Positions 1-35,407 of a stretch of DNA of 51,917 bases are shown here, one piece after another; positions within the stretch are counted from its first letter, which is position 1, and the number at the start of each line of letters is the position of its first letter. A model generated the notes under the pieces. The model was given only the letters and a program-made list of their open reading frames with translations. It had not been told where the DNA came from and did no database searches. The position numbers and the translations under genes are program-made. This DNA is from a virus (lineage: Duplodnaviria > Heunggongvirae > Uroviricota > Caudoviricetes), in the IMG/VR virus record IMGVR_UViG_3300044950_000141, positions 65,670-117,586 of that record. One strand, 5' to 3'.

Positions 1-2
1 TA

Positions 3-17345: not shown

Positions 17346-20300
17346 ATGAATATATCTTGCACAGAAGAAGTGTGTCCAATAATAATGAATGCTATTTGTG
17401 TATTCTATGAGGGTGCTGATTTAATATATACAGGGATTAATACTAATGATAATCTTCAAACTGCTCTAGAAAAAATAGATGCTAAGTTTGGTGATGCTTC
17501 TATTGGATATATATTTCAAAATGGTGTTATTCAAGCATCTCCAGGTGATCCTGTAAAACTAGGTGGTACATTAAATCAAAATACAGTTATTCTTAGTAGT
17601 GGATATACATTCACTATAACAGACTCTATTGAATCTGCTGCTTTGATAACAACAGGTGGAACATCCTCTGACTTTGTTAAAGGAGATGGCAGTCTTGACA
17701 GTGGCCCATATCAACCTGCAGGTAATTACATATCTTCTCTTTCAGGAGATGGTACTGCTACAGGTCCTGGAGCGTCTACACTAACACTAGCCACAGTAAA
17801 TACTAGTCCTGGTACATATGGATCTAGTACACTAGTTCCTAGGGTGACAGTTAATGGTAAAGGATTAGTGACAAACATCACTCCTGTTACAATAACTGTT
17901 CCTTCTGCTATTCTTATATTTGTAGGAGATGTGACAGGTGCTGGTATAACAGGATCTCCTACAACTCTTACATTACAGACAGTCAATCCTAATGTATATA
18001 GTTCTAATACATTTTTAAAGTTTGGTGTAAATGGAAAAGGTCTTGTAACATCTGCTGCTCCTATCACAGCATTAGATATAACTGGTGTATTAGGTTACAC
18101 TCCTGTACCCACTACAAGAACGCTTACAATTAATGGTTTAACACAAAACCTAGCATCTAATAGAACTTGGTCTGTAGGAACAGTGACAAGCGTAGGAATA
18201 TCTATGCCTTCTGGATTCACTGTAGGACCTCCTGTCACAAGTAGTGGAAACATTAATGTAACAGCTAATGGTACAATCGCTCAATATATAAGAGGTGATG
18301 GATCTATAGGTAGTTTTACAGCATCCACTTCAGGAAGTTCTGGAACATCAGGAACAGATGGTTCTTCTGGTACATCTGGAAGCTCTGGTTCAAGTGGTTC
18401 ATCAGCAACATCAGGTACATCTGCAAGCAGTGGTACTAGTGGTACAAATGGAACAAGTGGAAGCTCTGGTACGTCAGGCTCAAGTGGAACATCAGCAACA
18501 TCAGGCAGTTCAGGAACAGATGGCTCTAGTGGGTCAAGTGGTACATCAGGATCTTCAGGTAGTTCAGGTACATCTGCAAGCTCTGGTTCCTCTGGCTCTA
18601 GTGGAACCTCAGGTTCTTCTGGTTCTTCTGGATCTAGTGCAAGTTCAGGAACCTCTGGCAGCTCAGGTACAGATGGTTCTAGTGGCACTGATGGCTCAAG
18701 TGGTACGTCAGGAAGCTCAGGAACCACTGGTACAAGTGGTACATCAGGGAGTTCTGGTACATCTGGAAGTTCAGGTACAAGTGCTTCCTCAGGAAGTTCA
18801 GGAACAGATGGTTCAAGTGGAACATCTGCAAGCAGTGGAACTAGTGGAACTAGTGGATCTAGTGGTACGAGTGCAAGTTCTGGTTCTTCAGGAACTACTG
18901 GCACAAGTGGAACAGATGGGTCTAGTGGAACTTCAGCTTCTAGTGGGTCAAGTGGAACTAGTGCATCCTCTGGAACCAGTGCGTCATCTGGAACTAGTGG
19001 AACCTCTGGTACTAATGGAACATCAGGTAGTTCAGGAACATCAGCAACTAGTGGTTCATCAGGAACAAGTGCTTCTTCAGGACTATCAGGTGATAGATAT
19101 GCCACAACATCAACAACAACTTTTACTCTTGGTAATGCAGGAACAATAACTGTAGGTACTCAATTAGCATATACAGTGGCTCAATCAATCATTGTAGTGT
19201 ATGATGCTTTGAATTTCCAAGAGTGTGAAGTCTCATCATATAACCCAGCAACAGGCTCTCTATCTTTCTTAGCACCTACTAGAACAGTGGGTGGTGGTAC
19301 TTATTCATCATGGACAGTAAACTTAGATGGTGCTAGTGGAGGAGATGGAAGCTCTGGTACTTCTGGTTCAAGTGGAAGCTCAGCAAGTAGTGGTACAAGT
19401 GGTACGTCTGGAACAAATGGTACAAGTGGAAGCTCTGCAACAAGTGGGTCTTCAGGCACATCAGCTAGTTCTGGTACAAGTGCGTCATCAGGTACATCAG
19501 GAGTAAATGGTACTTCAGGAACTGATGGAAGCTCAGGTACTAGTGGTTCTAGTGGAACATCAGGAACCAATGGTACATCTGGTACTAATGGAACCTCTGG
19601 CTCATCAGGTACATCAGGAAGCAGTGGAAGCTCAGGAACTAGTGCGTCATCTGGTTCTAGTGGTACTAGTGCTTCAAGTGGATCTAGTGGTTCTAGTGGA
19701 AGTTCTGGTACCTCTGGCTCAAGTGGAACAAGTGGAACTAATGGAACATCAGCTTCAAGTGGATCTTCAGGAAGTTCAGGAACAAGTGGTAGCTCTGGAT
19801 CTAGTGGTACGAGTGCTTCATCAGGAAGCTCTGGTTCTAGTGGTACAACAGGAACTAGTGGATCAAGTGGAAGCAGTGGCACCTCTGGAAGTTCAGGTTC
19901 AAGTGGATCTAGTGGAACAAGTGCATCTAGTGGGTCAAGTGGTTCTACTGGAACTAGTGGAACAAGTGGTTCATCAGGAAGCAGTGGAACAAGTGGTAGT
20001 TCAGGAAGTAGTGGAACAGCAGGTTCAAGTGGTTCAAGTGGTGTAGGTGCTGTTATTGTGCTTGGAGCAGGAACATTATCATCTGTTAGATGTGGTGCGA
20101 GTAATAGTGCAACAGGTTCGTACACAGGTAACCTTGCAGGTTCAGGTAATACAATTGGTGGTTCTGCTTACAATACTATAATTGGTGGAGCTATCAATAC
20201 TGCTAGTGGAGCTTATTATGCTCATATAGGTAATGGTGCTAAACACACAGCTAGTGCAAATTTTTCTACTGTAAGTAATGGATATTGCAACATAGCAAGC

Positions 20301-23300
20301 GGTGGTTATTCTTTTATAGGTAGTGGTAATACAAATACAGCATCAGGAGATAAGTCGTTTATAGGTAATGGTCAATCTAATACTGCTTCAGGAGCTTGTT
20401 CAACTGTAGGAGGAGGTAGTAATAATTTAGCTTCAGGAATATTTTCAACTGTAGTAGGAGGTAGTAGTAACACTTCTAATAATACGAGAGCGTTTGTTGG
20501 AGGAGGTATTAGTAACACAGCATCAGCATACAATACAACAGTTGCAGGAGGATATGTTAACTCTGCCACTGTAGGTGGTGCAACAGTTGTGGGAGGTATA
20601 GGTAATACTGCATCAGGTGCTTGTAGCTTTGTAGGTGGAGGTTGTGCAAATTCAGCAACAAGCAATTTTACAACAGTAGGTGGTGGTGTTTGTAACACAG
20701 CAAGCAGTTATGCCAATACAATTGGTGGAGGATTTTATAATTATAGTGTTGGAAATTATAATACAATTTCAGCAGGTTATAAAAACTGTATTTTCTCAAC
20801 AGGCTCATTTATAGGTGGTGGTACTTGTAATTACATTTGTAATGGATTAGCTTTTTCTTGTACATCAAGTACTACAATTGCAGGTGGTGCAGGAAACAAT
20901 ACAAGTGGTGGTACATTTAATCCTACTAGTGGATATTTTAGTGTTGCTCCTACAGCTTTTTATGCAGCAGGACAATTTAGTTTTATAGGTGGAGGATTTC
21001 AGAATAGAGCAACAGGGACAAGTTCTGTTGTAGGAGGAGGTAAATCTAACACATCTTCAGGACTTTATTCAGTTGTTGGAGGAGGGTATCTGAACGTAGC
21101 AAATGGTGATACTTCTGCTGTATTAAGTGGACAACAAAATACATCATCATCTAATCAATCTGTAGTTGCAGGCGGTTATTTAAACACAGCTTCAGCATAT
21201 AGAGCAACTATTGCAGGTGGTCAGTCAAATACAGCATCAGGTAATTGTTCAACAGTTGGAGGAGGTCAAGCAAATCTTGCTTCAGTAGCTCATTCAACAG
21301 TGGCAGGAGGTATATCAAACATAGCTTCAGGGAACTGTTCATTTGTTGGTGGAGGATGTAGAAACTATTCAACAGGTGCTTGGTCTGCAATTGTAGGTGG
21401 CAGTGATAGCTGTGCCACAAGTACAAGAGCTTTTGTTGGTGGAGGTTATAATAATACTGCATCAAGCACATATTCAACAGTATCAGGTGGCTATGTAAAT
21501 GTAGCATCAGGTGGTCGTTCATTTGTAGGTGGAGGAACGAGTAACTTGGCATCAGGAGCAAATTCAACTGTGTCAGGTGGTATATCTAACACAGCTTCAG
21601 GTAACTGCTCTGTAGTTGCAGGGGGTAAAAATAATACAGCTTCTAATGCATATACATTTGTAGGTGGTGGTAATTTTACTATTGCTTGTGGAGTAAGTGC
21701 AACAGCAAGTGGCGGATATGCTTCACACGCTTATGGTAATTATTCAACAGTAGGTGGTGGATGTGGAAACAATGCTTTATCAGCTTGTTCAACTGTTGCA
21801 GGTGGTCGAGGTAATACAGCTAATTTTGCAGGTGCTGCAATAGTAGGAGGTCAATTAAATACAGCTTCTTATTATTTTTCTTTTGTAGGAGCAGGTAATT
21901 CTAATATAGCAAATAATTATGCAAGTGCTGTAGCAGGAGGTAGTAGTAATACAGCATCAGGTTATCGTTCATTTGTAGGGGCAGGTATAAGTAACACAGC
22001 TTCAGGTAATTGTTCTACAGTAGGTGGTGGTGAGAGTAATCAAGCATCAGGTGTATATTCAGCAACAGGGGGAGGAGTTCTTAATATTGCATCAGGAATT
22101 GATTCTGTGGTTGCAGGTGGGCGTTCAAATTCAGTATCAACACTTCGTTCTGCGGTAGGAGGAGGATTCCAAAACACAATTACCACAGGTGGCTATTCTA
22201 CTATTAGTGGCGGTTATGCTAATATTGCTTCAGGTGCAATATCATTTGTTGGTGGTGGATGTAGAAACTGTACAACATCAGCTTATTCTGTAGCTGTTGG
22301 AGGTAGAGCAAATACAGCAGCAGGAAGTGGTTATTCGTTTGTTGGTGGTGGTATAACAAATACAGCAAGTGGTTCATATTATTCTTTTGTGGGTGGTGGT
22401 TCTTCTAACACAGCTTCAGGAATAAGGTCAACTATTAGTGGTGGTGCAGGTAATACAGCATCAGGTGCAATATCATTTGTAGGAGGTGGTCAATCTAACG
22501 CAGCTTCAGGAGCTTGTTCTACTATTGGAGGAGGACAAGGTAATACAGCAACAGGTGCTAAATCATTTGTAGGAGGTGGATATAATAATACTGCTTCAAT
22601 TGCAAATGGAGTTGTAAGTGGTGGTTTAGGTAATACTGCATCAGGTTATTCAGGAACTGTAAGTGGTGGTTATCAAGGATTAAATAACCAAGCCTATGGA
22701 ACTTTAGGTGGTGGTACATTCAATAGTGTTTGCCATTCAGTTAGTGATATATGTGCATTAGGTGCAACAGTAGGTGGCGGTGTAGGTAGCAACTCTACAG
22801 GAGGAACATTTGTAAATGGATGGACAGTTAATCCAACAAGAGTAAACGCAGGTAGATATAGTACAGTAGCAGGTGGATTCCAAAATAAAGCAACAAGCAC
22901 AAGTGCTACAATTGGTGGTGGTTATCAAAACACTGCAAGTAATAGTTATTCTACTGCATCAGGTGGTTATAGAAATACAGCATCAGGAGTAGTATCAACA
23001 ATATCAGGTGGTTCAAATAATTTTGTATCATCAAATTATTCCACTGTAGGTGGAGGTACTTCTAACTGTATAACAGCAGGAAGAAACCACGTAATTGGCG
23101 GTGGTGAAACAAACACTATTAGTGCTAACTATTTTGGTACAGTTGGTGGTGGTGTATCTAATACAGCGTCAGGTTATAAATCTACAGTGGGAGGTGGCAG
23201 AACAAATGTTGCTTCAGCAGAATATTCAACAGCATCAGGAGGGCAAAGCAACACAGCTTCAGGGGTAGGTACATTTGTAGGGAGTGGATTAGGAAATACA

Positions 23301-25241
23301 GCAAATGGTACTCGTTCAGCTGTTGTAGGTGGTTCATCAAATGCAGCATCAGGTGTATGTAGCTTTGTAGGAAGTGGTCAAGGTAACAATTCATTAGCAA
23401 ATGCTTCGTTTATTGGTGGTGGTCAAGCTAATACTGCAAATGCAAACCAATCAACTGTAGTAGGAGGATATGGAAATACAGCTTCAGGTTATCGTTCATT
23501 TGTTGGTGGAGGTATATCAAATACATCTTCAGCATATAGAACAACAGTTTCAGGAGGTGATAGTAATGGTGCAACAGCAAACTATGCTACAGTAGGGGGT
23601 GGTATATCTAATACAGCTAGTTCTACTAATGCATTTGTAGGAGGTGGACAAGCAAACATATCTTCTAACGGAAGTACAACAGTTGCAGGTGGGACAAGTA
23701 ACACAGCTTCAGGATTAAGAGCTACAGTAGGAGGTGGCGATACTAATACAGCTTCAGGTGGACAATCAACAGTAAGTGGTGGTAACACTAACATAGCTTC
23801 AGGTGCTTGTTCATTTGTAGGTGGTGGAACAGGAAATAATGCAGTTAGTTTAGGTTCTTTTGTAGGCGGTGGAAGTATCAATACAGCTTGTGGTCCATAT
23901 AAAGCAGCAGTAGTGGGTGGAGGAAGTAACACTGCTTCAGGATATTATTCATTTATTGGAGCAGGATATGCAAACTGCATTTGCAACGTTTATTCAGGAA
24001 CAATATCAGGAGGTTATCAGAATACAATTTCAGCAGGTTGTCATGGATTTATTGGTGGTGGTAGACAAAACGTAGTTGCAGGTGTTCACGCAGGTGTAGT
24101 GTCAGGTATTTTAAACACAGCTTCAGGCAGTTGTTCATTTGTGGGTGGTGGTAGACTTCATACTGCTGCTGCGGGATTTTCAACTGTATCAGGAGGTTAT
24201 TGTCATACATCAAGTGGATATGGTTCAACAGTTGGTGGTGGCTATAGAAACACTGCAAACAATACCTATTCAACAGTAGCAGGGGGAAGCGGTCAATTAG
24301 CAACAGGAGCTAGATCTGTATTAGGAGGTGGAAGTGATAATATTGCTTCAGGAACTTATGCGTCAGTAATAGGAGGTATTTCAAATACAGCATCAGGACT
24401 TTGTTCAACCGTTGGGGGTGGTCAAGGTAATGTTGCATCAGGATGTTGGAACTTTGTAGGTGGTGGCCTTAGCAATACAGCAAGTGGTCTTTATTATGCA
24501 AGTGTAGTCGGTGGTGTTGGAAACATTGCTTGTTGTTCTTATTCAGCAATTGGTGGAGGATATTATAACTGTACAGGGTTTGTAGCTTCTGTAGGTGGAG
24601 GAGATGGTAACAAAGCTATGGGTAACTATTCAGCTATTGCTGGTGGATATTGTAACTGTGCTTCAGGCGCTTGTTCGTTCATTGGTGGTGGTGGTTCTTT
24701 TGGCGCAGGGGGTAATGTTGCATCAGGAGCTTGGTCAGCTATTTTAGGCGGTTTAAGTAATACAGCATCAGGTGCATTTTCAGGAGCATTTGGTTGTGGG
24801 TTAGCAGCTTCAGCAGCTTGTACATTCTATTCAAACAACTTCTGTGCAACTTCTTGTATAAATGCAGCAAGCAGGGGTACTTTTCTTGGAGCTGTTGACA
24901 ATGCTTTATTTAGTTTAAATAGTGGAGGTACATTGTACACAGTTGGATTTAGTCCAACAGCAAGTGCAAGTAGTACAAATACTTTTACATTAACAAATGG
25001 TACAACTACTTGGATTTACACTGGTAGTGGTGCGGCAACTTGGACACTTCCTAATCCTAGCGGTAATAACCAAATATATTGGATTAAAAACGCTGGCACT
25101 GGTGCAATAACTTTAAATGCTTTTAGTGGTACTAATATAATAAATAATAGTGCGACATCAGTAGGTAGTATTTCAATAGCGGTTGGTGCAACAGCAGTAA
25201 TCGCCCAAGACGGAAACGTAAAATCTTATCAATTACAATAA
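17346..25241 (+). CDS. Giant tail/head fibre or adhesin: N-terminal anchor, two Ser/Thr Gly-X-Y blocks, ~100 15-aa beta-solenoid repeats, C-terminal tip
   Basis: 2631 aa. SSG/TSG/TDG triplets followed by [T/F]VGGGxxNxASGxxS repeats. It lies downstream of the ejection genes. Confidence 0.8.
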   Translation: MNISCTEEVCPIIMNAICVFYEGADLIYTGINTNDNLQTALEKIDAKFGDASIGYIFQNGVIQASPGDPVKLGGTLNQNTVILSSGYTFTITDSIESAALITTGGTSSDFVKGDGSLDSGPYQPAGNYISSLSGDGTATGPGASTLTLATVNTSPGTYGSSTLVPRVTVNGKGLVTNITPVTITVPSAILIFVGDVTGAGITGSPTTLTLQTVNPNVYSSNTFLKFGVNGKGLVTSAAPITALDITGVLGYTPVPTTRTLTINGLTQNLASNRTWSVGTVTSVGISMPSGFTVGPPVTSSGNINVTANGTIAQYIRGDGSIGSFTASTSGSSGTSGTDGSSGTSGSSGSSGSSATSGTSASSGTSGTNGTSGSSGTSGSSGTSATSGSSGTDGSSGSSGTSGSSGSSGTSASSGSSGSSGTSGSSGSSGSSASSGTSGSSGTDGSSGTDGSSGTSGSSGTTGTSGTSGSSGTSGSSGTSASSGSSGTDGSSGTSASSGTSGTSGSSGTSASSGSSGTTGTSGTDGSSGTSASSGSSGTSASSGTSASSGTSGTSGTNGTSGSSGTSATSGSSGTSASSGLSGDRYATTSTTTFTLGNAGTITVGTQLAYTVAQSIIVVYDALNFQECEVSSYNPATGSLSFLAPTRTVGGGTYSSWTVNLDGASGGDGSSGTSGSSGSSASSGTSGTSGTNGTSGSSATSGSSGTSASSGTSASSGTSGVNGTSGTDGSSGTSGSSGTSGTNGTSGTNGTSGSSGTSGSSGSSGTSASSGSSGTSASSGSSGSSGSSGTSGSSGTSGTNGTSASSGSSGSSGTSGSSGSSGTSASSGSSGSSGTTGTSGSSGSSGTSGSSGSSGSSGTSASSGSSGSTGTSGTSGSSGSSGTSGSSGSSGTAGSSGSSGVGAVIVLGAGTLSSVRCGASNSATGSYTGNLAGSGNTIGGSAYNTIIGGAINTASGAYYAHIGNGAKHTASANFSTVSNGYCNIASGGYSFIGSGNTNTASGDKSFIGNGQSNTASGACSTVGGGSNNLASGIFSTVVGGSSNTSNNTRAFVGGGISNTASAYNTTVAGGYVNSATVGGATVVGGIGNTASGACSFVGGGCANSATSNFTTVGGGVCNTASSYANTIGGGFYNYSVGNYNTISAGYKNCIFSTGSFIGGGTCNYICNGLAFSCTSSTTIAGGAGNNTSGGTFNPTSGYFSVAPTAFYAAGQFSFIGGGFQNRATGTSSVVGGGKSNTSSGLYSVVGGGYLNVANGDTSAVLSGQQNTSSSNQSVVAGGYLNTASAYRATIAGGQSNTASGNCSTVGGGQANLASVAHSTVAGGISNIASGNCSFVGGGCRNYSTGAWSAIVGGSDSCATSTRAFVGGGYNNTASSTYSTVSGGYVNVASGGRSFVGGGTSNLASGANSTVSGGISNTASGNCSVVAGGKNNTASNAYTFVGGGNFTIACGVSATASGGYASHAYGNYSTVGGGCGNNALSACSTVAGGRGNTANFAGAAIVGGQLNTASYYFSFVGAGNSNIANNYASAVAGGSSNTASGYRSFVGAGISNTASGNCSTVGGGESNQASGVYSATGGGVLNIASGIDSVVAGGRSNSVSTLRSAVGGGFQNTITTGGYSTISGGYANIASGAISFVGGGCRNCTTSAYSVAVGGRANTAAGSGYSFVGGGITNTASGSYYSFVGGGSSNTASGIRSTISGGAGNTASGAISFVGGGQSNAASGACSTIGGGQGNTATGAKSFVGGGYNNTASIANGVVSGGLGNTASGYSGTVSGGYQGLNNQAYGTLGGGTFNSVCHSVSDICALGATVGGGVGSNSTGGTFVNGWTVNPTRVNAGRYSTVAGGFQNKATSTSATIGGGYQNTASNSYSTASGGYRNTASGVVSTISGGSNNFVSSNYSTVGGGTSNCITAGRNHVIGGGETNTISANYFGTVGGGVSNTASGYKSTVGGGRTNVASAEYSTASGGQSNTASGVGTFVGSGLGNTANGTRSAVVGGSSNAASGVCSFVGSGQGNNSLANASFIGGGQANTANANQSTVVGGYGNTASGYRSFVGGGISNTSSAYRTTVSGGDSNGATANYATVGGGISNTASSTNAFVGGGQANISSNGSTTVAGGTSNTASGLRATVGGGDTNTASGGQSTVSGGNTNIASGACSFVGGGTGNNAVSLGSFVGGGSINTACGPYKAAVVGGGSNTASGYYSFIGAGYANCICNVYSGTISGGYQNTISAGCHGFIGGGRQNVVAGVHAGVVSGILNTASGSCSFVGGGRLHTAAAGFSTVSGGYCHTSSGYGSTVGGGYRNTANNTYSTVAGGSGQLATGARSVLGGGSDNIASGTYASVIGGISNTASGLCSTVGGGQGNVASGCWNFVGGGLSNTASGLYYASVVGGVGNIACCSYSAIGGGYYNCTGFVASVGGGDGNKAMGNYSAIAGGYCNCASGACSFIGGGGSFGAGGNVASGAWSAILGGLSNTASGAFSGAFGCGLAASAACTFYSNNFCATSCINAASRGTFLGAVDNALFSLNSGGTLYTVGFSPTASASSTNTFTLTNGTTTWIYTGSGAATWTLPNPSGNNQIYWIKNAGTGAITLNAFSGTNIINNSATSVGSISIAVGATAVIAQDGNVKSYQLQ
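18327..19092 (+). repeat. Gly-X-Y (Ser/Thr) 9-nt period repeat block 1
   Basis: Roughly 85 triplets TSG/SSG/TDG/TNG, with occasional Ala in place of Gly. Confidence 0.9.
19340..20043 (+). repeat. Gly-X-Y (Ser/Thr) 9-nt period repeat block 2
   Basis: Roughly 78 triplets, separated from block 1 by an ~80 aa globular spacer (DRYATTS...WTVNLDG). Confidence 0.9.
20130..24800 (+). repeat. 15-residue (45-nt) degenerate tandem repeat array
   Basis: Consecutive units such as TVGGGSNNLASGIFS / TVVGGSSNTSNNTRA / FVGGGISNTASAYNT. Confidence 0.9.
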
Positions 25242-26852: not shown

Positions 26853-27671
26853 ATGGAAAAGATATTCTATCAAAGTTCTTTACCAAGAGCAGGTTCAACA
26901 TTGTTACAAAACATATTAGCACAAAACTCAGACATCTATGCTACACCAACTAGTGGTGTTCTTGAGTTAGTGTTTGCAGCTAGAGGAAACTATACAGATA
27001 GTCCTGAGTTCCAAGCTCAAGATCCTGAGATAATGAAGACAGCATTCCAAGCTTTCTGTAGATTTGGTATGGAGGCTTATTACAATGCTATTACAAATAA
27101 GAAATACATTGTAGATAAATCTAGAGGATGGGGAATACATTATGACTTCCTAAACTTTGTTCACCCAGAGCCAAAGATTATATGCATGGTGAGAGACTTA
27201 AGAGATGTATTTGCATCAATGGAAAACAACTATAGAAAGAATCCTGACAAAGCAAATGCCATCCTTAATTGGGCACAGATGCAAGGCACAACAGTTCCAA
27301 AGCGTGTAGACATTTGGGCACAGGGTCAACCTGTAGGACTTGCTATTGAAAGGTTGCAAGAGTTGTTTAGATTAGGCATAGACAAGCATGTTTTATTTGT
27401 AAAGTTTGAAGACTTATGTTTATATCCTGATAGCACAATGGTAAAAATATACGAGTATTTAGGCATACCATATTACCAACATGATTGGGATAACATAGAG
27501 CAAGTAACTAAAGAAGATGATGAAGTGTATGGAAGCTTTGGTGACCATGTAATTCGTACAAAACTTGAACCTGTAAGAAGTAAAGCAAAAGAACTATTAG
27601 GTAAAGATGTTACAGATTGGATTTGGAATAATTATGAATGGTTTTTTAAACAATTTAGATATACAAAATGA
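26853..27671 (+). CDS. PAPS-dependent sulfotransferase
   Basis: 5'-PSB loop SLPRAGSTLL and 3'-PB motif RDLRDVFAS. Confidence 0.85.
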   Translation: MEKIFYQSSLPRAGSTLLQNILAQNSDIYATPTSGVLELVFAARGNYTDSPEFQAQDPEIMKTAFQAFCRFGMEAYYNAITNKKYIVDKSRGWGIHYDFLNFVHPEPKIICMVRDLRDVFASMENNYRKNPDKANAILNWAQMQGTTVPKRVDIWAQGQPVGLAIERLQELFRLGIDKHVLFVKFEDLCLYPDSTMVKIYEYLGIPYYQHDWDNIEQVTKEDDEVYGSFGDHVIRTKLEPVRSKAKELLGKDVTDWIWNNYEWFFKQFRYTK

Positions 27672-28105
27672 TAATAGTTATTTTTGGACAGCCTGCATCA
27701 GGCAAGACAACCCTAGCTAAAAAGTTTATAGAAGAGGGATTCCACCACATAGATGGTGATGAACTAAGAGAGACATTTAAGAACAGTGATTATAGCAGAG
27801 AAGGTAGAATTAAAAATCTAAATAGAGCTAGTGACATAGCTCATTACTTAGATAAGATAAAAGGCTATAATGTAGTGCTTTCATTAGTATATCCTTATGA
27901 AGAAGCTAGACAATACTTTATTAAATTAAACAGAAGTGTTAAATGGATATATCTTATATATCAAGAAGATAGAGGTAGAGATGAATTTAAAGTGGCAGAC
28001 TTTGAGCTTCCACATATGGATAATGTAGAGTTAATTTTAAATACTTCAGTTGATTCAATAGATGTATGTACTGATAAAATTAAAAATGTATGCAGAATAT
28101 TTTAA
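27668..28105 (+). CDS. cysC: Adenylyl-sulfate (APS) kinase, compact
   Basis: P-loop GQPASGKTT, then DGDELR and YSREGRIKN, typical of CysC. Overlaps the sulfotransferase stop (ATGA). Confidence 0.75.
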   Translation: MIIVIFGQPASGKTTLAKKFIEEGFHHIDGDELRETFKNSDYSREGRIKNLNRASDIAHYLDKIKGYNVVLSLVYPYEEARQYFIKLNRSVKWIYLIYQEDRGRDEFKVADFELPHMDNVELILNTSVDSIDVCTDKIKNVCRIF

Positions 28106-28476
28106 CTGAAGGCAATCGTAAGACAGATGGTTATGCTATGTTCATTGGAAGATGGCAACCATGGCACGCTGGACACAGGTGGTTAATTGATCAACAATTG
28201 AACCAGGGAAAGAAGGTGTTACTGTGTATAAGAGATGTTAAGCAGGATGAAAAGAACCCATGGTCTGCTTGGCAGATAATGATGAATCTATCAGAAGAAC
28301 TAATAGATCTTATAGAAGATAACAAAGTGAGACTTATGATTATCCCTGATATTGAGTCTATTAACTTTGGTAGAGGGGTAGGATATGATGTTGTTGAACA
28401 CGTTCCACCACAAGAGATACATGACATCTCAGCTACTCAAATTAGAGAACAAATGAAAGCAGAAGGTAAGTTATGA
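28090..28476 (+). CDS. HxGH class I nucleotidyltransferase (cytidylyltransferase-like); candidate minimal sulfate adenylyltransferase
   Basis: FIGRWQPWHAGH and C-terminal ISATQIRE motifs. Confidence 0.75.
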   Translation: MQNILTEGNRKTDGYAMFIGRWQPWHAGHRWLIDQQLNQGKKVLLCIRDVKQDEKNPWSAWQIMMNLSEELIDLIEDNKVRLMIIPDIESINFGRGVGYDVVEHVPPQEIHDISATQIREQMKAEGKL

Positions 28477-28682
28477 TAGTAGAACGTAAAAGACACATAG
28501 CTAAGACAATCAGTTATAGATTGATAAGCACCCTTATAGGATTTGCTGCAATGCTTGTTGTTACAGGCTCTGTAAAAGCAGGAGCAGCGTTTGGTATAGC
28601 TGAATTACTTTGGAAACCAATACAATATTATTTCCATGAACGTATATGGTATAGATGGATTAAGTATGGACTAAAGCCTTAA
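28473..28682 (+). CDS. DUF2061-like small membrane protein
   Basis: RHIAKTISYRLIST...YYFHERIW pattern with two hydrophobic segments. Confidence 0.75.
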   Translation: MIVERKRHIAKTISYRLISTLIGFAAMLVVTGSVKAGAAFGIAELLWKPIQYYFHERIWYRWIKYGLKP

Positions 28683-29763
28683 CTGCCATAGCAACATCAT
28701 TAACAGAAATACTCTTATGACATTCAAACTGTCTAGGAGTATTTTCATTTTCAGGACACCAGTTCCAATCTCCTTTGTTAAACTTGAACATAGGATTATT
28801 CCAACATCCATTACACACTTCTTTATTAGTTATACGTGTACAATCTTCTTGAAACTCATGGTCTTCTGTAGTGAAGTTAGAGATCATTACAGTGTGCTTA
28901 CATATAGCCCAGTTCAACCAACTGATACCACTAGACAGTCCTATGAACAAATCTGCATGATGTAGATAGTTCATAACGTTCTGTAAACTAGTATCGTCTA
29001 GTTTCTCTGCACCATAGTCATCAGCTTCTTGAGACATCTCAAACACTCTGTATCCCCAGCTTTTTAGTTGCTGAATTAACTCTGGCCAGTAGTACCAATG
29101 TTTACACTGTGCTGTAGATTTTGTAGATATACATATGTATTCATTCACTACAGGTCTTTCTTCTAGTGTAAATGCTATTCTAGGATGTATCTCTTTAAAT
29201 GGTAGGGCTAATATGTTACTTGCTGATTGTTGTAATGGTATAGTGGCAGGATGTGTAGGTTCTTTTTCCTTATCCCAAAACCAACCTAGTTCAACCCTAG
29301 CTTTGATATTCTGTACTATTGTTCCTCTACCTGAAAACTCTAGTTCAGGATATGCACTCTCAAACAAGTCATTCTTGAATGTAGACACAATCACTTTACA
29401 TTTATAAACTTCCTGAAATTGTAAACAGTATGGTATCCAAGCTATGCTATCACCAAGACTCTTAGACTCAAATACAATAAACACCCTCTCACCTTTAAAC
29501 TCATCTAGTAAGTTCACTTGTTTAATTGTACGTCCTTCATACTTAATGAATATAGCTATATCAGATATATACTTTCTACTAAGTCTAGCCCACGCACCTG
29601 GCTTTAGTTTTGTTTCATAGATAGTTACATGTTGATCTGTAAGCATGCCTTCCACCTTACCCTTTCTATCTACAAACTGTATATCATATTCTCTGTTCTT
29701 ACCACCATCCTCTATTAGTTCAAAGAACAAACCATCAACATGGTTTAATTTATATGTTATCAT
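28660..29763 (-). CDS. TibC/Aah-like (autotransporter O-heptosyltransferase family) glycosyltransferase
   Basis: SLGDSIAWIPYCLQFQEVYKCK plus the C-terminal four-Cys motif CNGCWN..WCP..RQFEC of bacterial autotransporter heptosyltransferases. Confidence 0.75.
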   Translation of the reverse strand: MITYKLNHVDGLFFELIEDGGKNREYDIQFVDRKGKVEGMLTDQHVTIYETKLKPGAWARLSRKYISDIAIFIKYEGRTIKQVNLLDEFKGERVFIVFESKSLGDSIAWIPYCLQFQEVYKCKVIVSTFKNDLFESAYPELEFSGRGTIVQNIKARVELGWFWDKEKEPTHPATIPLQQSASNILALPFKEIHPRIAFTLEERPVVNEYICISTKSTAQCKHWYYWPELIQQLKSWGYRVFEMSQEADDYGAEKLDDTSLQNVMNYLHHADLFIGLSSGISWLNWAICKHTVMISNFTTEDHEFQEDCTRITNKEVCNGCWNNPMFKFNKGDWNWCPENENTPRQFECHKSISVNDVAMAVKALVHT

Positions 29764-30763
29764 ATGCGTTTATATATAATTGTTTTGTCTTTTCTGATGT
29801 ATATCCTTCATTGATCTTCAACACATTTTCATAGTATTTATGTAATGTCTTAGCTACATTGTCCCAGCTATAACTATTACGTACAGTTAGCATCTCTTGT
29901 CTTCTATGTTCATATGTCTTAATTGTCTCTGTAATGCCATGCATTACACTCTCTGTGCTAATGTTTGGTAACACCCACATACCAGGGAAGTGTTTAGATC
30001 CTCTATAAGTTCCTACAATAGGAATACATACACTAGCTGCTTCACATAATGTTAGATTGGGATGTCCTGCTTCTAGCATAGATGGATGTAAGAAGATGCT
30101 ATGATCCTGATACAGTTCTTTCATTTCTTCATCTGTAGGATTTGTTAACTTTAAAGTTAACTTTTTATAATTCAATAACTCTATATGGATATCAAAGAAC
30201 TTCTGATTGTCAGTATGTCCAGCAATAGTGATAGGTAGATCTAATTCTCTAGCTGCTTCTATACCATATCTAAATCCTTTTCTATCAAACCCTGAGTCAC
30301 CTGCTAATCCATTGTTAGCTATCATCAATAGTTTATGTGGACCCATTCTATAGTCTGGTGTAAAGAATTCTGTGTTAGCCCCATGTCTTAGATAGAACAA
30401 CTTATCAGTCTCACTGAAGTAGTCTATTAGATACTCAGCATGTGTAAAAGATATAATGCTATTCTTCATAGCCTCTAGATTTTGCTTATACACCCAGCTA
30501 TCTTTACCATACCATTCTGTATGATGATCATGTAGAGAGTATACATAAGGTATACCTTTGTCTCTACAATACAAAGCCTGGTTAGCTAGATGTGTATGTA
30601 CAATTGTATCTGGCCATTTCTCTAGCTCATTCATATATTTGATGTCTACAACATCTCCTAGCTTTTCAAGGGATTGTTTATATTCCCATGTAAGTCTTTC
30701 TACAGCTCCCCATCCATTTGGTGGTATAGTTATAAGCCCTGTAGCTACGTGTACTATTCTCAT
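29750..30763 (-). CDS. Glycosyltransferase family 4 (GT-B)
   Basis: IPPNGWGAVE N-terminal motif and FLHPSMLEAGHPNLTLCEA (E-x7-E-like). Confidence 0.8.
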   Translation of the reverse strand: MRIVHVATGLITIPPNGWGAVERLTWEYKQSLEKLGDVVDIKYMNELEKWPDTIVHTHLANQALYCRDKGIPYVYSLHDHHTEWYGKDSWVYKQNLEAMKNSIISFTHAEYLIDYFSETDKLFYLRHGANTEFFTPDYRMGPHKLLMIANNGLAGDSGFDRKGFRYGIEAARELDLPITIAGHTDNQKFFDIHIELLNYKKLTLKLTNPTDEEMKELYQDHSIFLHPSMLEAGHPNLTLCEAASVCIPIVGTYRGSKHFPGMWVLPNISTESVMHGITETIKTYEHRRQEMLTVRNSYSWDNVAKTLHKYYENVLKINEGYTSEKTKQLYINAYDNI

Positions 30764-33414
30764 TTTCTAAATGTTTTTTGCATGTTGTCTATTAAGGAAA
30801 ATCCATCTGCTTGTGTGGTAAGTCTCTTCTTCACAATACCCATTCTATCTCCTGCAAAGATATTATTAAAATACATATCAGCAGCATCCCACTTGTGCAT
30901 TCTTAAAGTTTCTTTTAACCATGGAGCTACATGTGCAGGGAACATGATACATTGTAAACCTATAATATGATTTGTAACATACATGTCATTGTTCACTTCT
31001 TTGACAACAGGACTTTGTGGCCAGCCATATTCTAATGTATCTTTATCTCCAAAGGACATGTATTCTATTCCATTCTCTATAAGCTTAGTTGCACACTCTT
31101 CTACAGTCTTAATGAACTCTTCAATAGGTGCCTCAATGATACAATCACCTTCACACACTATCAAGTAGTCACAGTTATTGAATTCACTCAAGATAGCATT
31201 CTTGAATGCTTCATAGCATCCATAATGTGCTGGGGTAAGTGCAGTGCCATGTTGTTGAACTTGTTGTTCATTGAAGAGTTCCATTGAAACACAACTGGGT
31301 CTGAGACAGTTATATGATGGTGGTAATGATTTATAGGGCTCGTTAATGTGTAACTTATATTCCCATCCATGGTTGATAACTTCAATAAGGGAGTCTCTGC
31401 TAGCTTTTTCTCTTTCATCATTTAATGTGGTTTGTATGTGAACTAATTTAATCTTTGGTCTATCTTTCTTCTTCCATTCAAATTTACCAGTTTTCTGATA
31501 TTTATGAATAGTATCTGCATTCATTTCAAACTTTTCTTTCTTATATATTCTATCTCCATCATAACATGACATTTCTATTACATTATTTCCTGTGTATTCA
31601 AACTCATGTTTAAATTCTCTTGTTGTAGAAATATCTATCTTCATCATATATTCTCCAATCTTAACCCAAAATATTCTATCATCTACATTATATGTAAAGA
31701 AATAGAACATATACCAATCAGGCTTTCCAGTAACAGGAAGTATAGAATAATACTCGCTATTAGATGCAACACCTAATCCACTGTGTATCAACAATGTTTG
31801 ATCAGCATTAGTAACTAATTGTATATCATTTGGATTGAAACTAAATACCACCTTAGCTAAATAGTCTTCTAGATAGTTCTCACACTTTCTTCTCTTACAT
31901 ACAGCATCCCATTCATCAGGTGTACGTACATCATCAAATTCTTTTACAAAGAAGTCTACATCAAACATCATTCCATTGGTTTGAATTCCTTTTCCTTGAG
32001 ATGTATTAACTATACCTAAATAAGCTTTCTTGTCTGTATTAAAGGATTCATTAATAACACCTAAGTCTTTCTCATTTACAACTACATCATATGTGTTATA
32101 GAATGCACGTTTGTATCCTAGATCTTGAGCAGCTTTGAATCCATTATATAAGTTAGTAAGTACAGTGAGAGACTGATTACTATATTTCAATCCATTGATA
32201 TTCACCTCAGCATAATAGTCATCTGTATGTCTATAGAATCTGCTGTAATAAGAATGATGTGTTAATGGATTATGTGCATCGTACACATAGTGATCCACCA
32301 TACGTTGTATCTCCTCGTCCACAGGATAGTGACTGATTAACATGATGTTTCTACCTAAGGCTTTCATAGAGTTGATAGTATCCTTAGTTAATTGTGCACG
32401 AGATTTTAAATTAGGATAGGTGCCTATGATGATAAGTTCTTCATCTTTCTTATCAAGGTTTAATTTTTTGATGATATTAGTAGCATCACTACCAATATCT
32501 CCAGTTAAATAAACCATATTCTCTGCATCATTATACTTGTTACAATATACATCTAGGTTGTACATTACTTTGATCAAGTCATCATATTCCATAGCTTCTT
32601 TAATAGCAATAGGATTTAACTCCTTGTTACCTCTGTCTCCTTTAGATGGGAAGAAGAATACATCAGAAGCTTCTAAGAACATGTCTACATCATCTCGCTC
32701 ACCCCACACAACACAGTTGTCTGGTTTGTTAGCCATCAAGGGCTTCCAATATGATTCAAAGTTACCAGCTTGGTTACCTAGGAAATGAAACTTAACCTTG
32801 TAGTTCTTAAGTCTTTCTGCTAGTTGGAATGCATAAGCTTGATTCTTTCTAGGTGTAAACAACCCTACAGTTACAAAGTGTTTATAGTCATGCTCTAATC
32901 CTAACTTTTCTCTTATAGCATACTGGTTTCTTTCTTTCTTGTTTACAGGATACTCAATCACTTCTGTAGGTACATTTAATGTAATGTATTGAAATGAATT
33001 ATATGAGCTAACAAATATAAACTTGTCAGGCAAATAGTATTTGTTTTTAGGATTGAATGAACTATCATGTGTAGTTTCTACAATCTTCCATGGCTTCTCT
33101 GCATCGTATAGATAGTCAGCACATTCTTCATTCATAAACATCTCTGGAAACTCTTCCATAGAGATTACATCTGGTTTGAACTCTTGCAGAACTTGCAACA
33201 GTTCATCATATTTATTCTCTCCTAGTGAATGGAAGTTCTGATCTCCCACTAGTTTAATTATTCTATTTCTTTGCACAACAAACTGCCATGCTAGGAATGC
33301 ATACTCTACCACCTTGATATCAAAGTCATTCTGTAGTAGTTCTACTTTGTTTACTGTTACCTGGGGTGCTCCTCCTGTTGATAGATGAGGAGTGATGATT
33401 AATAGTTTCTTCAT
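30760..33414 (-). CDS. Multidomain glycosyltransferase (N-terminal GT4, central unknown domain, C-terminal GT-A/GT25-like)
   Basis: ITPHLSTGGAPQ, VGLFTPRKNQ and SDVFFFPS..ELNPIAIKEA; C-terminal HYGCYEAF..LIVCEGDC. Confidence 0.75.
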   Translation of the reverse strand: MKKLLIITPHLSTGGAPQVTVNKVELLQNDFDIKVVEYAFLAWQFVVQRNRIIKLVGDQNFHSLGENKYDELLQVLQEFKPDVISMEEFPEMFMNEECADYLYDAEKPWKIVETTHDSSFNPKNKYYLPDKFIFVSSYNSFQYITLNVPTEVIEYPVNKKERNQYAIREKLGLEHDYKHFVTVGLFTPRKNQAYAFQLAERLKNYKVKFHFLGNQAGNFESYWKPLMANKPDNCVVWGERDDVDMFLEASDVFFFPSKGDRGNKELNPIAIKEAMEYDDLIKVMYNLDVYCNKYNDAENMVYLTGDIGSDATNIIKKLNLDKKDEELIIIGTYPNLKSRAQLTKDTINSMKALGRNIMLISHYPVDEEIQRMVDHYVYDAHNPLTHHSYYSRFYRHTDDYYAEVNINGLKYSNQSLTVLTNLYNGFKAAQDLGYKRAFYNTYDVVVNEKDLGVINESFNTDKKAYLGIVNTSQGKGIQTNGMMFDVDFFVKEFDDVRTPDEWDAVCKRRKCENYLEDYLAKVVFSFNPNDIQLVTNADQTLLIHSGLGVASNSEYYSILPVTGKPDWYMFYFFTYNVDDRIFWVKIGEYMMKIDISTTREFKHEFEYTGNNVIEMSCYDGDRIYKKEKFEMNADTIHKYQKTGKFEWKKKDRPKIKLVHIQTTLNDEREKASRDSLIEVINHGWEYKLHINEPYKSLPPSYNCLRPSCVSMELFNEQQVQQHGTALTPAHYGCYEAFKNAILSEFNNCDYLIVCEGDCIIEAPIEEFIKTVEECATKLIENGIEYMSFGDKDTLEYGWPQSPVVKEVNNDMYVTNHIIGLQCIMFPAHVAPWLKETLRMHKWDAADMYFNNIFAGDRMGIVKKRLTTQADGFSLIDNMQKTFRK

Positions 33415-34340
33415 ATGTTATTGTTAATTGCGTGAATCACCTGCTCTACAGATGGATGACACTCATAAGCTTCTTTCTTCTCTAAGCATCCAATCAGTGG
33501 CTGTACAGAGTCTATTGTAGGCCAATACTCAAGAGCATATTTCATATTGGATGAACAGTGTAATCCACATGCTCCTCTTACGTATATATGTTTGCTAGTC
33601 TTTCTACGTGGTCTACGAAACTCTGGGTTGATAGGAGATCCTAATTCAATTATAGGTGTTTCTGTTGTACCTGCTAAATGTAGGATACCTGAGTCCATTG
33701 TAATTACAACTGCAGCATCGTTAATCAGATGCCAGCTCTCAGAGATAGATGTTTGATTCATTAGATTGATAACATTTTGATTATCAATATCATGTACAGG
33801 TTTGTTTACATTAAAGAATCCTGTCTCAGAACTATCCTTACCTATAGCCACCACTTTGTATCCCCACTTCACTAACTCTTCAGATAGCTTTAGCCAGTTC
33901 TCTTGTGACCATGTTCTATTAGGCCAGCTGTTAACAGGATGTATTACAGCATACTTCTCATGTACAAAGTTCTTCTTAGGTTCTGTAGGTTTGTAATAAC
34001 ATTCTAGTTCATCTTCTCCAAGCATAAAGCCTAGGTGTATGGCATGAAACTGTCTGATGTCCATCATGTTATGCTTCATCTCCACACCACGCTCGTCCTT
34101 CTTACCTACTAGATAGAATGAATTATGTACAATGTAATTACTTTGTATGTACGTCATGTCTATAGAACTAGCTTTATAGCTCTTCTCTACATAGGGATTC
34201 GTTTTAAATAGCTCAGGCATCTGAGAGATGACAGTAATCTTTCTTTGATATGCATCATGTAGTTTCTTAATGGTGGGGGTGGCACATATCAGGTCTCCCA
34301 AACCATTACATTCTTCTAAGTTTAAGCAAACTGGTTTCAT
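33411..34340 (-). CDS. Glycosyltransferase family 9-like with C-terminal Cys cluster
   Basis: GLGDLICATPTIKKL, DSGILHLAG and CGLHC..C..EC. Confidence 0.8.
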   Translation of the reverse strand: MKPVCLNLEECNGLGDLICATPTIKKLHDAYQRKITVISQMPELFKTNPYVEKSYKASSIDMTYIQSNYIVHNSFYLVGKKDERGVEMKHNMMDIRQFHAIHLGFMLGEDELECYYKPTEPKKNFVHEKYAVIHPVNSWPNRTWSQENWLKLSEELVKWGYKVVAIGKDSSETGFFNVNKPVHDIDNQNVINLMNQTSISESWHLINDAAVVITMDSGILHLAGTTETPIIELGSPINPEFRRPRRKTSKHIYVRGACGLHCSSNMKYALEYWPTIDSVQPLIGCLEKKEAYECHPSVEQVIHAINNNI

Positions 34341-34981
34341 TGTATTGACATTAAAAAATCAGGAGTTGTATAGTCTCTTTTAACTGTTGTATATCCTAGT
34401 CTAGCTAAGAAATTTACAGCTGTACTTGTATTGTCCTCTAACCATATTAGAGGCTTATCTCTTTGTATTAATTTTATCATTCCTTCAAAAGCAGACATCT
34501 CATGACCCTCAATATCTATCTTGATAAACTTAACAGGCTCATCAAACCATACATCATCTAGAGCTAAGACAATGTTCTTATGTGCTCCATTAGGTACAAT
34601 CTTTACCACACCACTGTTGGAACCATGTCCATCATCAAATGAAACAATAGATGTTCTACTACCCACTCCTACATTTATTGCAGATACATCCTTGTATCTT
34701 TTTGTGTTTTGCTTTAGAACAGAATAGTTATCTGGATGTGGTTCAAATGCTATAATCTTTAAGTTAGGGAAGTGGTGTTTAAATTGTACACAATGTCCTC
34801 CTATATTAGCCCCAATATCTAACATTAGTCCTGTAGAAGGGAAATGTTCTTTCCAATCATTAAATAACTGAAATTCCCAGAAATCATTGTATTTAACTAT
34901 GTCATCTGAGATACATTCAGGACTCTCAAATATAACCATAGGTGTATTGTGAATACTTACTATCCTAGTTTCTCGTTTCAT
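34337..34981 (-). CDS. FkbM-family SAM-dependent methyltransferase
   Basis: LDIGANIGGH, FEPHP and IKIDIEGHE. Confidence 0.9.
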   Translation of the reverse strand: MKRETRIVSIHNTPMVIFESPECISDDIVKYNDFWEFQLFNDWKEHFPSTGLMLDIGANIGGHCVQFKHHFPNLKIIAFEPHPDNYSVLKQNTKRYKDVSAINVGVGSRTSIVSFDDGHGSNSGVVKIVPNGAHKNIVLALDDVWFDEPVKFIKIDIEGHEMSAFEGMIKLIQRDKPLIWLEDNTSTAVNFLARLGYTTVKRDYTTPDFLMSIQ

Positions 34982-34984
34982 TTG

Positions 34985-35014
34985 TTGGTTATTTCCACAA
35001 ATATACTATCTTTG
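34985..35014 (+). promoter_or_regulatory. Promoter for the DUF6165-like gene
   Basis: TTG (34985-87) N19 TATCTTTG (35007-14). Confidence 0.7.
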
Positions 35015-35028
35015 CTCAAAATAACAAA
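34998..35028 (-). promoter_or_regulatory. Promoter for the minus-strand glycosyltransferase operon
   Basis: On the minus strand, TTTG (35028-35025) N19 TATATTTG (35005-34998). Confidence 0.7.
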
Positions 35029-35038
35029 ACGTTTTGCT

Positions 35039-35407
35039 ATGAAAATTGAAGTTTCTGTAGGAGAAGTAGTAGATAAATGGACTATACTTTCCATCAAAGC
35101 CCTGAACATTACAGACAAAGACAAACTAGTTAATGTTTTCAAAGAAAGAAATTATCTGAATGATGCTGTACATCCTGAGATCTTACATGACCCTATGACT
35201 GATGAACTTCTTAAGGTGAACCAGTTTCTTTGGAAGGTGGAAGATCTTCTAAGAGACTTTGAAAGAGCTAGTAGCTTTGGAGAAGAGTTTGTTGACTTAG
35301 CTAGATCTGTCTACAAATTAAATGATCAAAGAGCACATATTAAAAAAGAAATTAATATTAAGTATGGCTCTGACTTTGTAGAGGAAAAGTCCTACCAGCC
35401 CTACTAA
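35039..35407 (+). CDS. DUF6165-like helical protein
   Basis: MKIEVSVGEVVDKWTILSIK...LWKVEDLLR...LARSVYKLNDQRAHIKKEIN...EEKSY. The start is reassigned to ATG 35039, downstream of the promoter. Confidence 0.75.
   Translation: MKIEVSVGEVVDKWTILSIKALNITDKDKLVNVFKERNYLNDAVHPEILHDPMTDELLKVNQFLWKVEDLLRDFERASSFGEEFVDLARSVYKLNDQRAHIKKEINIKYGSDFVEEKSYQPY

Follow-up and report, generated by a model that had tools for sequence, protein, structure and literature searches.

Protein O-heptosylation is known from TibC of enterotoxigenic Escherichia coli (ETEC) H10407 and from Aah, the partner of AIDA-I, and has so far been regarded as a special virulence trait confined to a few Proteobacteria. Both enzymes are encoded beside the gene for a long, Ser-rich, repetitive surface protein, namely a secreted AIDA-type autotransporter with 19-residue beta-helix repeats. 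Here, a relative of these enzymes is described from a phage (Caudoviricetes; IMG/VR record IMGVR_UViG_3300044950_000141). The stretch of DNA analysed, called the window throughout, covers the last 51.9 kb (51,917 nucleotides, bases 65670-117586) of this 117,586-base virus record, which is rated 100% complete. At 28660-29763 on its minus strand, the window encodes a TibC/Aah-like glycosyltransferase in an operon that faces the gene for a giant Ser-rich fibre. On balance, the enzyme probably starts O-glycans on proline-free collagen-like tracts of this fibre, and the operon would then be a virion-glycosylation module.

Closest described systems

The active site of TibC has been described in detail (PMC4358343). 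Asp-110 is the catalytic base, Thr-226 and Lys-230 bind the beta-phosphate, Trp-305 contacts O4 of the heptose, and residue 300 selects between the D,D and L,D epimers, both of which are taken by Aah when bound to ADP. Arg-286, placed on N1 of the adenine, is the stated basis of ADP-sugar specificity through a hydrogen bond that the authors call weak. A 1Fe-0S iron finger (Cys-339, 342, 358 and 370) contacts the protein substrate. A beta-hairpin thumb with a hydrophobic tip (Phe-265 and Val-266) serves the dodecameric assembly, and without it TibC is dimeric and inactive. Activity is abolished or largely diminished in the R286A mutant as well as in the thumb mutants F265D and V266D. The acceptor is the folded beta-helix of TibA with its 19-residue repeats, wherein only Ser is glycosylated (PMC4358343). 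The window enzyme resembles TibC and Aah in domain order, catalytic residues and the four Cys, and it likewise lies beside the gene for a long Ser-rich repetitive protein. Unlike the two bacterial enzymes, it lacks both the thumb and Arg-286, is phage-encoded, and is coupled to a family GT4 glycosyltransferase (GT), to which it is fused elsewhere. Further, its partner is a fibre without an autotransporter domain.

A second precedent comes from C. difficile, where the gene for the transferase SgtA adjoins that for the collagen-like protein BclA3. SgtA places O-linked N-acetylglucosamine (GlcNAc) on Thr, with Ser accepted, in Gly-Pro-Thr repeats, and both BclA3 and BclA of B. anthracis are O-glycosylated collagen-like proteins of the spore surface (PMC7157674). 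The likeness lies in a dedicated transferase that starts an O-glycan within Gly-X-Y repeats, which other enzymes then extend; in the window, the corresponding gene pair is convergent and 3.4 kb apart. However, SgtA is a GT-A enzyme using UDP-GlcNAc and the window enzyme is a TibC-like GT-B protein, making the two analogues rather than homologues. The acceptors differ as well: Gly-Pro-Thr on a spore in the one case, nearly pure Ser/Thr tracts without proline on a phage virion in the other. Finally, the lipopolysaccharide (LPS) heptosyltransferases WaaC and WaaF share family GT9 and the GT-B core with the window enzyme but have neither the N-terminal barrel nor the iron finger and act on lipid-linked acceptors, and the window enzyme scores far under their cut-offs.

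A literature search returned no publication in which a TibC-like enzyme is encoded by a phage or paired with a collagen-like fibre. Judging by their titles and abstracts, none of the papers that bring together TibC, heptosyltransferases and phages describes a phage-encoded enzyme. Automatic pipelines nevertheless label many such phage genes 'autotransporter strand-loop-strand O-heptosyltransferase'. This label has spread over hundreds of phage genes that lack an autotransporter partner, and the annotation is corrected here.

A TibC-like enzyme beside a giant fibre

The enzyme gene, the fibre gene and the repetitive regions of the fibre are placed as follows:

28660..29763, minus strand: TibC/Aah-like (BAHT-like) glycosyltransferase, 367 aa, with an N-terminal beta-barrel, a GT-B core and a four-Cys iron-finger motif, without the beta-hairpin thumb
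17346..25241, plus strand: giant fibre, 2,631 aa, convergent with the operon; 20% Ser; Pfam Collagen, E 6e-47
18309..19097, plus strand: collagen-like tract 1, proposed acceptor; fibre aa 322-584; 87 triplets, 118 Ser, 46 Thr, 0 Pro; Gly (or Ala) every third residue
19314..20066, plus strand: collagen-like tract 2, proposed acceptor; fibre aa 657-907; 83 triplets, 111 Ser, 37 Thr, 0 Pro
20241..24725, plus strand: about 90 tandem 15-residue units, consensus TASGxxS(T/F)VGGGxSN; fibre aa 966-2460; autocorrelation peaks at lag 15 with 0.37; a beta-solenoid is presumed

The open reading frame (ORF) of the enzyme is uninterrupted over all 367 codons. A first-pass annotation, made from the letters alone, had recognised a phage-borne TibC/Aah-type enzyme by the motifs LGD..AW.PY and CxxC..WCP..RQFEC. 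Both are present in the translation, as LGDSIAWIPY at aa 103-112 and as C317-NG-C320 ... W-C336-P ... RQFE-C348. The family assignment is borne out by a hidden Markov model search: NCBIfam TIGR04414 (hepto_Aah_TibC), the equivalog model for TibC/Aah with a curated cut-off of 200 bits, matches at 235.4 bits (E 9.8e-70) over profile positions 24-373 of 374, and again at 234.2 bits when the genome DNA is searched. A sequence search of the PDB leads to the TibC structures 4RAP and 4RB4 (E 6.6e-46); identity to TibC and Aah is 29-31%. An AlphaFold model built on an alignment of 17 homologues (pLDDT 86.6, pTM 0.88) contains seven N-terminal strands. In a Foldseek comparison of this model with the PDB, the best 21 matches are all TibC chains (E 4e-27, TM 0.78), followed by WaaC and WaaF at E about 1e-6. 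Pfam PF01075 gives 26 bits. The LPS heptosyltransferase models remain below their cut-offs (TIGR02193 for heptosyltransferase I, 23 bits vs 185.3; RfaQ, 16 vs 467), and an identity as an LPS heptosyltransferase is rejected for this ORF on scores of 16-23 bits against cut-offs of 185-467. A PHROGs search returned no family. By homology, the ORF is thus assigned to a phage-type lineage of TibC/Aah protein O-glycosyltransferases, predicted to be inverting GT-B enzymes of CAZy family GT9. That the gene is phage-borne also holds: the complete-rated virus record carries, within the window, an endolysin, a UvsX-like recombinase and a ribonucleotide reductase.

The giant Ser-rich fibre, which the same annotation had placed 3.4 kb away, is found there as well, with 3,419 bases between its stop and the enzyme ORF. 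It consists of an N-terminal domain (aa 1-321), two collagen-like tracts, the 15-residue repeats and a C-terminal domain. Over the 170 triplets of the two tracts, the first position is Gly in 143 and Ala in 23. The tracts hold 229 Ser and 83 Thr, no Pro, Lys or Glu, and 10 Asp and one Arg as their only charged residues. The description of the fibre as a beta-solenoid is only partly supported. The roughly 90 regular units are there, but the fibre also holds the two collagen-like tracts, which had gone unmentioned. The solenoid itself is presumed from periodicity, and the fold of aa 1040-1400, predicted without an alignment, is strand-rich at a low pLDDT of 44.

Association of the enzyme with Ser/Thr-rich collagen-like tracts

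The argument for the proposed acceptor comes from other phages. Relatives of the enzyme with 47-83% identity were collected from 44 IMG/VR loci. Most of those with enough flanking DNA show a convergent giant ORF composed of 50-89% Ser+Gly+Thr, and a Ser/Thr-saturated Gly-X-Y run occurs no more than 10 kb from the enzyme in 30/44. What these fibres have in common is a proline-free Gly-Ser/Thr-Ser/Thr collagen-like tract with a Ser+Thr fraction of 0.47-0.63. The 15-residue repeats are found only in the window and in one further locus (L019); in other fibres the tract is accompanied solely by unrelated domains. The N-terminal domain of the window fibre recurs in seven loci and its C-terminal domain in none, while the GT4 enzyme, an 884-aa GT, a GT9 enzyme and a DUF6165 protein of the window recur in 30-39/44. 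Similar arrangements exist in independent lineages. Microcystis phage Mel-JY01 has an open frame exceeding 1,000 aa (66% Ser+Gly+Thr) directly upstream of a fusion enzyme, and a 735-kb phage has a Gly-X-Y Ser/Thr run near its TibC-like enzyme.

The association is also seen in the reverse direction. IMG/VR records were chosen solely by the DNA pattern (GGN WSN WSN)x8, irrespective of the enzyme, of which 72 could be searched. TIGR04414 matched in 23/72 (12/44 plus 11/28), and in 6/11 of the records that are at least 90% complete. By comparison, ordinary-collagen records, selected by a Gly-every-third-codon pattern and with tracts below 30% Ser+Thr, contained the enzyme in 0/46 cases (Fisher p = 2.4e-6), with the proviso that these counts ignore the kinship of the phages and that a fragment without the gene is not a phage without the gene. 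The median distance between tract and enzyme is 8.5 kb, with 13/23 within 10 kb; the distance was 5 kb in a 548-kb genome, 8.5 kb in a 249-kb genome or contig and 2.9 kb in a 121-kb contig. In a curated phage collection, the enzyme is present in only 4/50,697 genomes.

Among bacteria, the 74 classical thumb-bearing loci (about 1.25 Mb of flanks) showed no Ser/Thr Gly-X-Y run. An E. coli reference plasmid displays the classical aah-aidA pairing of enzyme and autotransporter. Runs were present only at those loci from bacterial genomes whose enzyme falls into the phage-type clade. Two metagenome-assembled genomes, one of Pseudobdellovibrionaceae (L285, on a 238-kb contig) and one of Ignavibacteriaceae (L286), have phage-type TibC-like genes with Ser/Thr Gly-X-Y runs nearby; these could be prophages, or bacteria that use the same pair.

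Collectively, the co-occurrence across phages supports the earlier proposal that enzyme and fibre form a linked pair. The feature that travels with the enzyme, however, is the collagen-like tract and not the 15-residue repeat on which that proposal was built.

Residues kept and lost relative to TibC

An alignment with the PDB sequences shows that the catalytic and sugar-binding residues of TibC are kept. D105, T217, K221 and W282 of the window enzyme align to Asp-110, Thr-226, Lys-230 and Trp-305, and the catalytic Asp, the phosphate-binding Lys and the sugar-contacting Trp are invariant across the 16 phage and bacterial sequences aligned. C317, C320, C336 and C348 correspond to the iron-finger cysteines and are likewise invariant in the alignments. 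At the position of Pro-300, the window enzyme has S277, and Ser is also found there in Aah.

Two elements have been lost. Val263 occupies the position of Arg-286, and the thumb segment is reduced to four residues (ADDY). A total of 115 sequences were aligned, drawn from the related viral loci, from phage records and bacterial genomes, and from the E. coli aah-aidA plasmid. A thumb of 13-14 residues (consensus xxHGxGhVWNHIPH) accompanies Arg at position 286 in each of the 75 enzymes encoded on bacterial chromosomes or plasmids. By contrast, the 38 phage-type sequences have thumb segments of 4-5 residues, with V/A/T/I/L at the Arg-286 position in 36/38 and Arg in 2/38. An intermediate segment of 11 residues is seen in Mel-JY01 and in one Pseudobdellovibrionaceae contig. 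In a maximum-likelihood tree, a long, fully supported branch separates the phage-type enzymes from the 75 classical bacterial enzymes sampled. The thumb and the adenine-contacting Arg thus appear to have been lost throughout the phage clade, bar the two sequences that have the Arg.

These losses bear on function. As the thumb required for the dodecamer is absent, the enzyme is probably a monomer or an iron-finger dimer rather than a ring around beta-helices, and as Arg-286 is replaced, ADP-heptose becomes uncertain as the donor. The idea that the phage applies to its fibre the same logic as TibC applies to TibA is therefore doubtful.

A conserved glycosyltransferase operon

The TibC-like gene is the last of five genes on the minus strand, which follow in the order FkbM methyltransferase, GT9, 884-aa GT, GT4 and TibC-like enzyme and overlap by 4, 4, 4 and 14 bases. 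The operon is thus translationally coupled and points at the 3' end of the giant fibre gene. Its other members and the adjoining genes are:

29750..30763, minus strand: GT4-type glycosyltransferase, 337 aa; Pfam Glycos_transf_1, E 5e-7; its stop overlaps the TibC-like start by 14 bases; in 37/44 related loci
30760..33414, minus strand: multidomain glycosyltransferase, 884 aa, with a GT4-like N-terminal part; Pfam Glycos_transf_1, E 8.6e-10 at aa 166-277; in 39/44 related loci
33411..34340, minus strand: second GT9-family glycosyltransferase, 309 aa; Pfam Glyco_transf_9, E 4.2e-17; in 32/44 related loci
34337..34981, minus strand: FkbM-family methyltransferase, 214 aa, first gene of the operon; Pfam Methyltransf_21, E 3.9e-16; TIGR01444 at 77.7 bits vs 37.7; in 12/44 loci
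34949..35407, plus strand: DUF6165 protein, divergent from the operon; Pfam DUF6165, E 1.2e-11; co-conserved in 30/44 related loci
26853..28682, plus strand: sulfotransferase, APS-kinase-like P-loop kinase, 128-aa HxGH-type nucleotidyltransferase and DUF2061 protein, assigned by Pfam/NCBIfam; between the fibre and the TibC-like gene

The coupling of the GT4 and TibC-like genes has a counterpart in gene fusions. Both domains are combined in one polypeptide in at least four other lineages, namely a 700-aa protein from IMG/VR, a 738-aa protein of the 735-kb phage, a 1,227-aa protein of Mel-JY01 and a 932-aa GT2-GT4-TibC protein. Viral TibC-like proteins form 1,270 clusters at 50% identity, and the best 150 of the 1,270 cluster representatives are mostly fusions of 600-2,000 aa in which the TibC-like domain forms the C-terminal end or lies close to it. 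Fusions of this kind indicate that the two enzymes work in one pathway.

Facing the operon, the plus strand carries the fibre, two small ORFs, a 295-aa ORF and then the sulfation-type genes at 26853-28682. The latter recur in 4-8/44 related loci and represent a variable add-on to a conserved cassette. The 309-aa GT9 protein resembles LPS heptosyltransferases at scores below every curated cut-off (NCBIfam heptosyltransferase II, 54 bits vs 134.6).

Proposed function

The family, the conserved catalytic residues, the operon structure, the fusions and the association statistics are established. What the enzyme modifies, which sugar it transfers, how it oligomerises and what the fibre gains from it are inferred, the function being deduced from the gene-neighbourhood statistics. 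Late in infection, the enzyme would add a first sugar to Ser, and possibly Thr, hydroxyls of the collagen-like tracts in the host cytoplasm. Asp105 would act as the catalytic base, Thr217 and Lys221 would hold the beta-phosphate of the donor, and Trp282 would contact the sugar. The GT4 enzyme and the remaining transferases could then extend the glycan, which the methyltransferase, and here perhaps the sulfotransferase, would cap, such that the virion would end up with a glycan-coated stalk. Such glycans might stabilise or protect a triple helix that is devoid of proline and hydroxyproline.

If the behaviour of the family holds, the donor would be host-made ADP-heptose. The nearest copies in bacterial assemblies (46-61% identity) are on short contigs that were binned with Bacteroides, Sediminibacterium, Chitinophaga and a gammaproteobacterium. 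The bins tested, from Bacteroidota and others, encode both GmhA-like and HldE-kinase-like proteins, with strong scores of 196-234 and 309-380 bits, respectively. Activated heptose supplied by the host is therefore plausible, with the reservation that binning is weak evidence for a host and that, with the Arg lost, the nucleotide may be a different one.

A bolder form of the proposal may be entertained tentatively. The thumb-less, Arg-less enzymes could constitute a separate, widespread viral subfamily with a new class of acceptor, dedicated to the O-glycosylation of collagen. They would place the first sugar of a methylated, here perhaps also sulfated, oligosaccharide on almost all Ser/Thr of triple-helical phage fibres that lack proline, the glycan taking over the stabilising role of proline and hydroxyproline. 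In any case, the TibC lineage includes a large viral branch (1,270 clusters, with the best-scoring mostly multidomain fusions) that has lost the thumb and has a different repeat-protein partner. If the proposed function is true, aquatic and gut-type phages would offer a direct example of virions O-glycosylated by phage-encoded enzymes, and one that can be tested. It would further offer an explanation for a collagen-like helix without proline and provide a new enzyme-substrate pair for densely glycosylated collagen-like materials.

Several observations weigh against this function. Linkage is argued entirely from co-occurrence, in which related phages do not count as independent samples. About two-thirds of the Ser/Thr-collagen records have no enzyme; many of these are small fragments, but 5/11 of the records at least 90% complete also have none, which means that the enzyme is not obligatory for such fibres. 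Conversely, no tract lies within 10 kb of the enzyme at the loci L028, L029 and L046 or at L042 and L044. With Ala in place of Gly in 23/170 triplets, a regular triple helix is uncertain in the window fibre itself. TibC uses only Ser on a folded beta-helix; acceptors of the collagen type would add a new class of substrate. With thumb and Arg both missing, the chemistry of the phage enzyme cannot be read off directly from that of TibC. Further, neither HldE domain I or II nor the GmhA SIS domain turned up in a search of the phage genome.

Alternative donors and acceptors

The acceptor could be as proposed and the sugar a different one. Use of another donor, for example a GDP- or UDP-sugar, is possible, if somewhat doubtful, and 'heptosyltransferase' would then be a misnomer for the clade. 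It would account for the residues at the Arg-286 position (Val here, V/A/T/I/L in 36/38 phage-type sequences vs Arg in 75/75 bacterial ones), and it fits the failure to find GmhA and HldE genes in the phage genome as well as the presence of the clade in a Microcystis phage; cyanobacterial LPS usually contains no heptose. However, the Trp that contacts heptose O4 and the phosphate-binding Thr and Lys are invariant, and the Pro-300 position has Ser as in Aah, which takes both epimers of ADP-heptose. Candidate Bacteroidota hosts also hold GmhA-like and HldE-kinase-like genes, and the lost contact is a hydrogen bond that the TibC paper itself calls weak (PMC4358343). A different question is whether the enzyme heptosylates the 15-residue repeats, as TibC does TibA, with the collagen-like tracts as possible additional acceptors. 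The region is superficially autotransporter-like, having about 90 regular units with conserved Ser at positions 3 and 7 beside Gly-rich turns, and the known BAHT acceptors are beta-helical passengers (PMC4358343; E. coli aah-aidA). Nonetheless, this is unlikely: among distinct fibres the repeats occur only in the window and in L019, the thumb needed for the dodecamer ring around beta-helices has been deleted, and the solenoid fold rests on periodicity, with a pLDDT of 44 for aa 1040-1400.

Acceptors other than the fibre are less probable still. The window encodes further glycosyltransferases and Thr/Ser-rich proteins, so that the operon might glycosylate either the poly-Thr/Ser proteins encoded around 38.4-40.7 kb or proteins of the capsid or tail. 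Mycobacteriophages reportedly carry virion glycosylation on Ser/Thr-rich tail proteins, and published papers suggest capsid glycosylation from glycosyltransferase genes. The association described above is, however, specific to Gly-X-Y Ser/Thr tracts and spatially tight over unrelated genome types, making such targets distinctly improbable. Even smaller is the chance that the operon acts on a non-protein acceptor and remodels the LPS or a different envelope glycan of the host during infection, for instance as a barrier to superinfection. Most GT9 enzymes are heptosyltransferases of the LPS core, the operon itself includes a further GT9 enzyme of the LPS type, and phage-encoded envelope-modifying transferases are well known. 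Yet the enzyme scores 235 bits on the protein model against 23 on that for LPS heptosyltransferase I (cut-off 185), and it has kept the iron finger, the element with which TibC touches its protein substrate. Remodelling of the envelope would also leave the association with Ser/Thr-collagen genes unexplained. Glycosylation of the collagen-like tracts thus remains the preferred function.

Further observations on the locus and its relatives

The C-terminal part of the 884-aa GT (aa 640-884, window positions 30760-31494) led in a feature search to viral GT25 clusters (score 0.96, 93/100 matches), which is to be taken as a lead only; Pfam gave no match for these 245 aa. GT25 includes the animal collagen galactosyltransferases. 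For the 884-aa protein, a PDB sequence search was empty and PHROGs offered no family. The 128-aa nucleotidyltransferase was considered as a heptose-1-phosphate adenylyltransferase and rejected, as it has no rfaE domain II match and fits weakly to models of the nicotinamide mononucleotide (NMN)-adenylyltransferase type. A scan of 28.3-35.6 kb for promoters and terminators gave the same counts as shuffled sequence, and megablast of window positions 26-36 kb found nothing similar among 50,697 phage genomes.

In Mel-JY01 (L047, PP395634.1), positions 2-3052 are a single open frame that has been annotated as several small ORFs, some of them on the opposite strand, and the GT4 and TibC-like fusion at 4750-8430 is annotated merely as 'methyltransferase FkbM'. 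In the record of locus L124 (G067:C1:4622-6558), two TibC-like matches lie head to tail, the second with one in-frame TAA, which could mean either that one copy of a duplicated gene is broken or that the stop is recoded.

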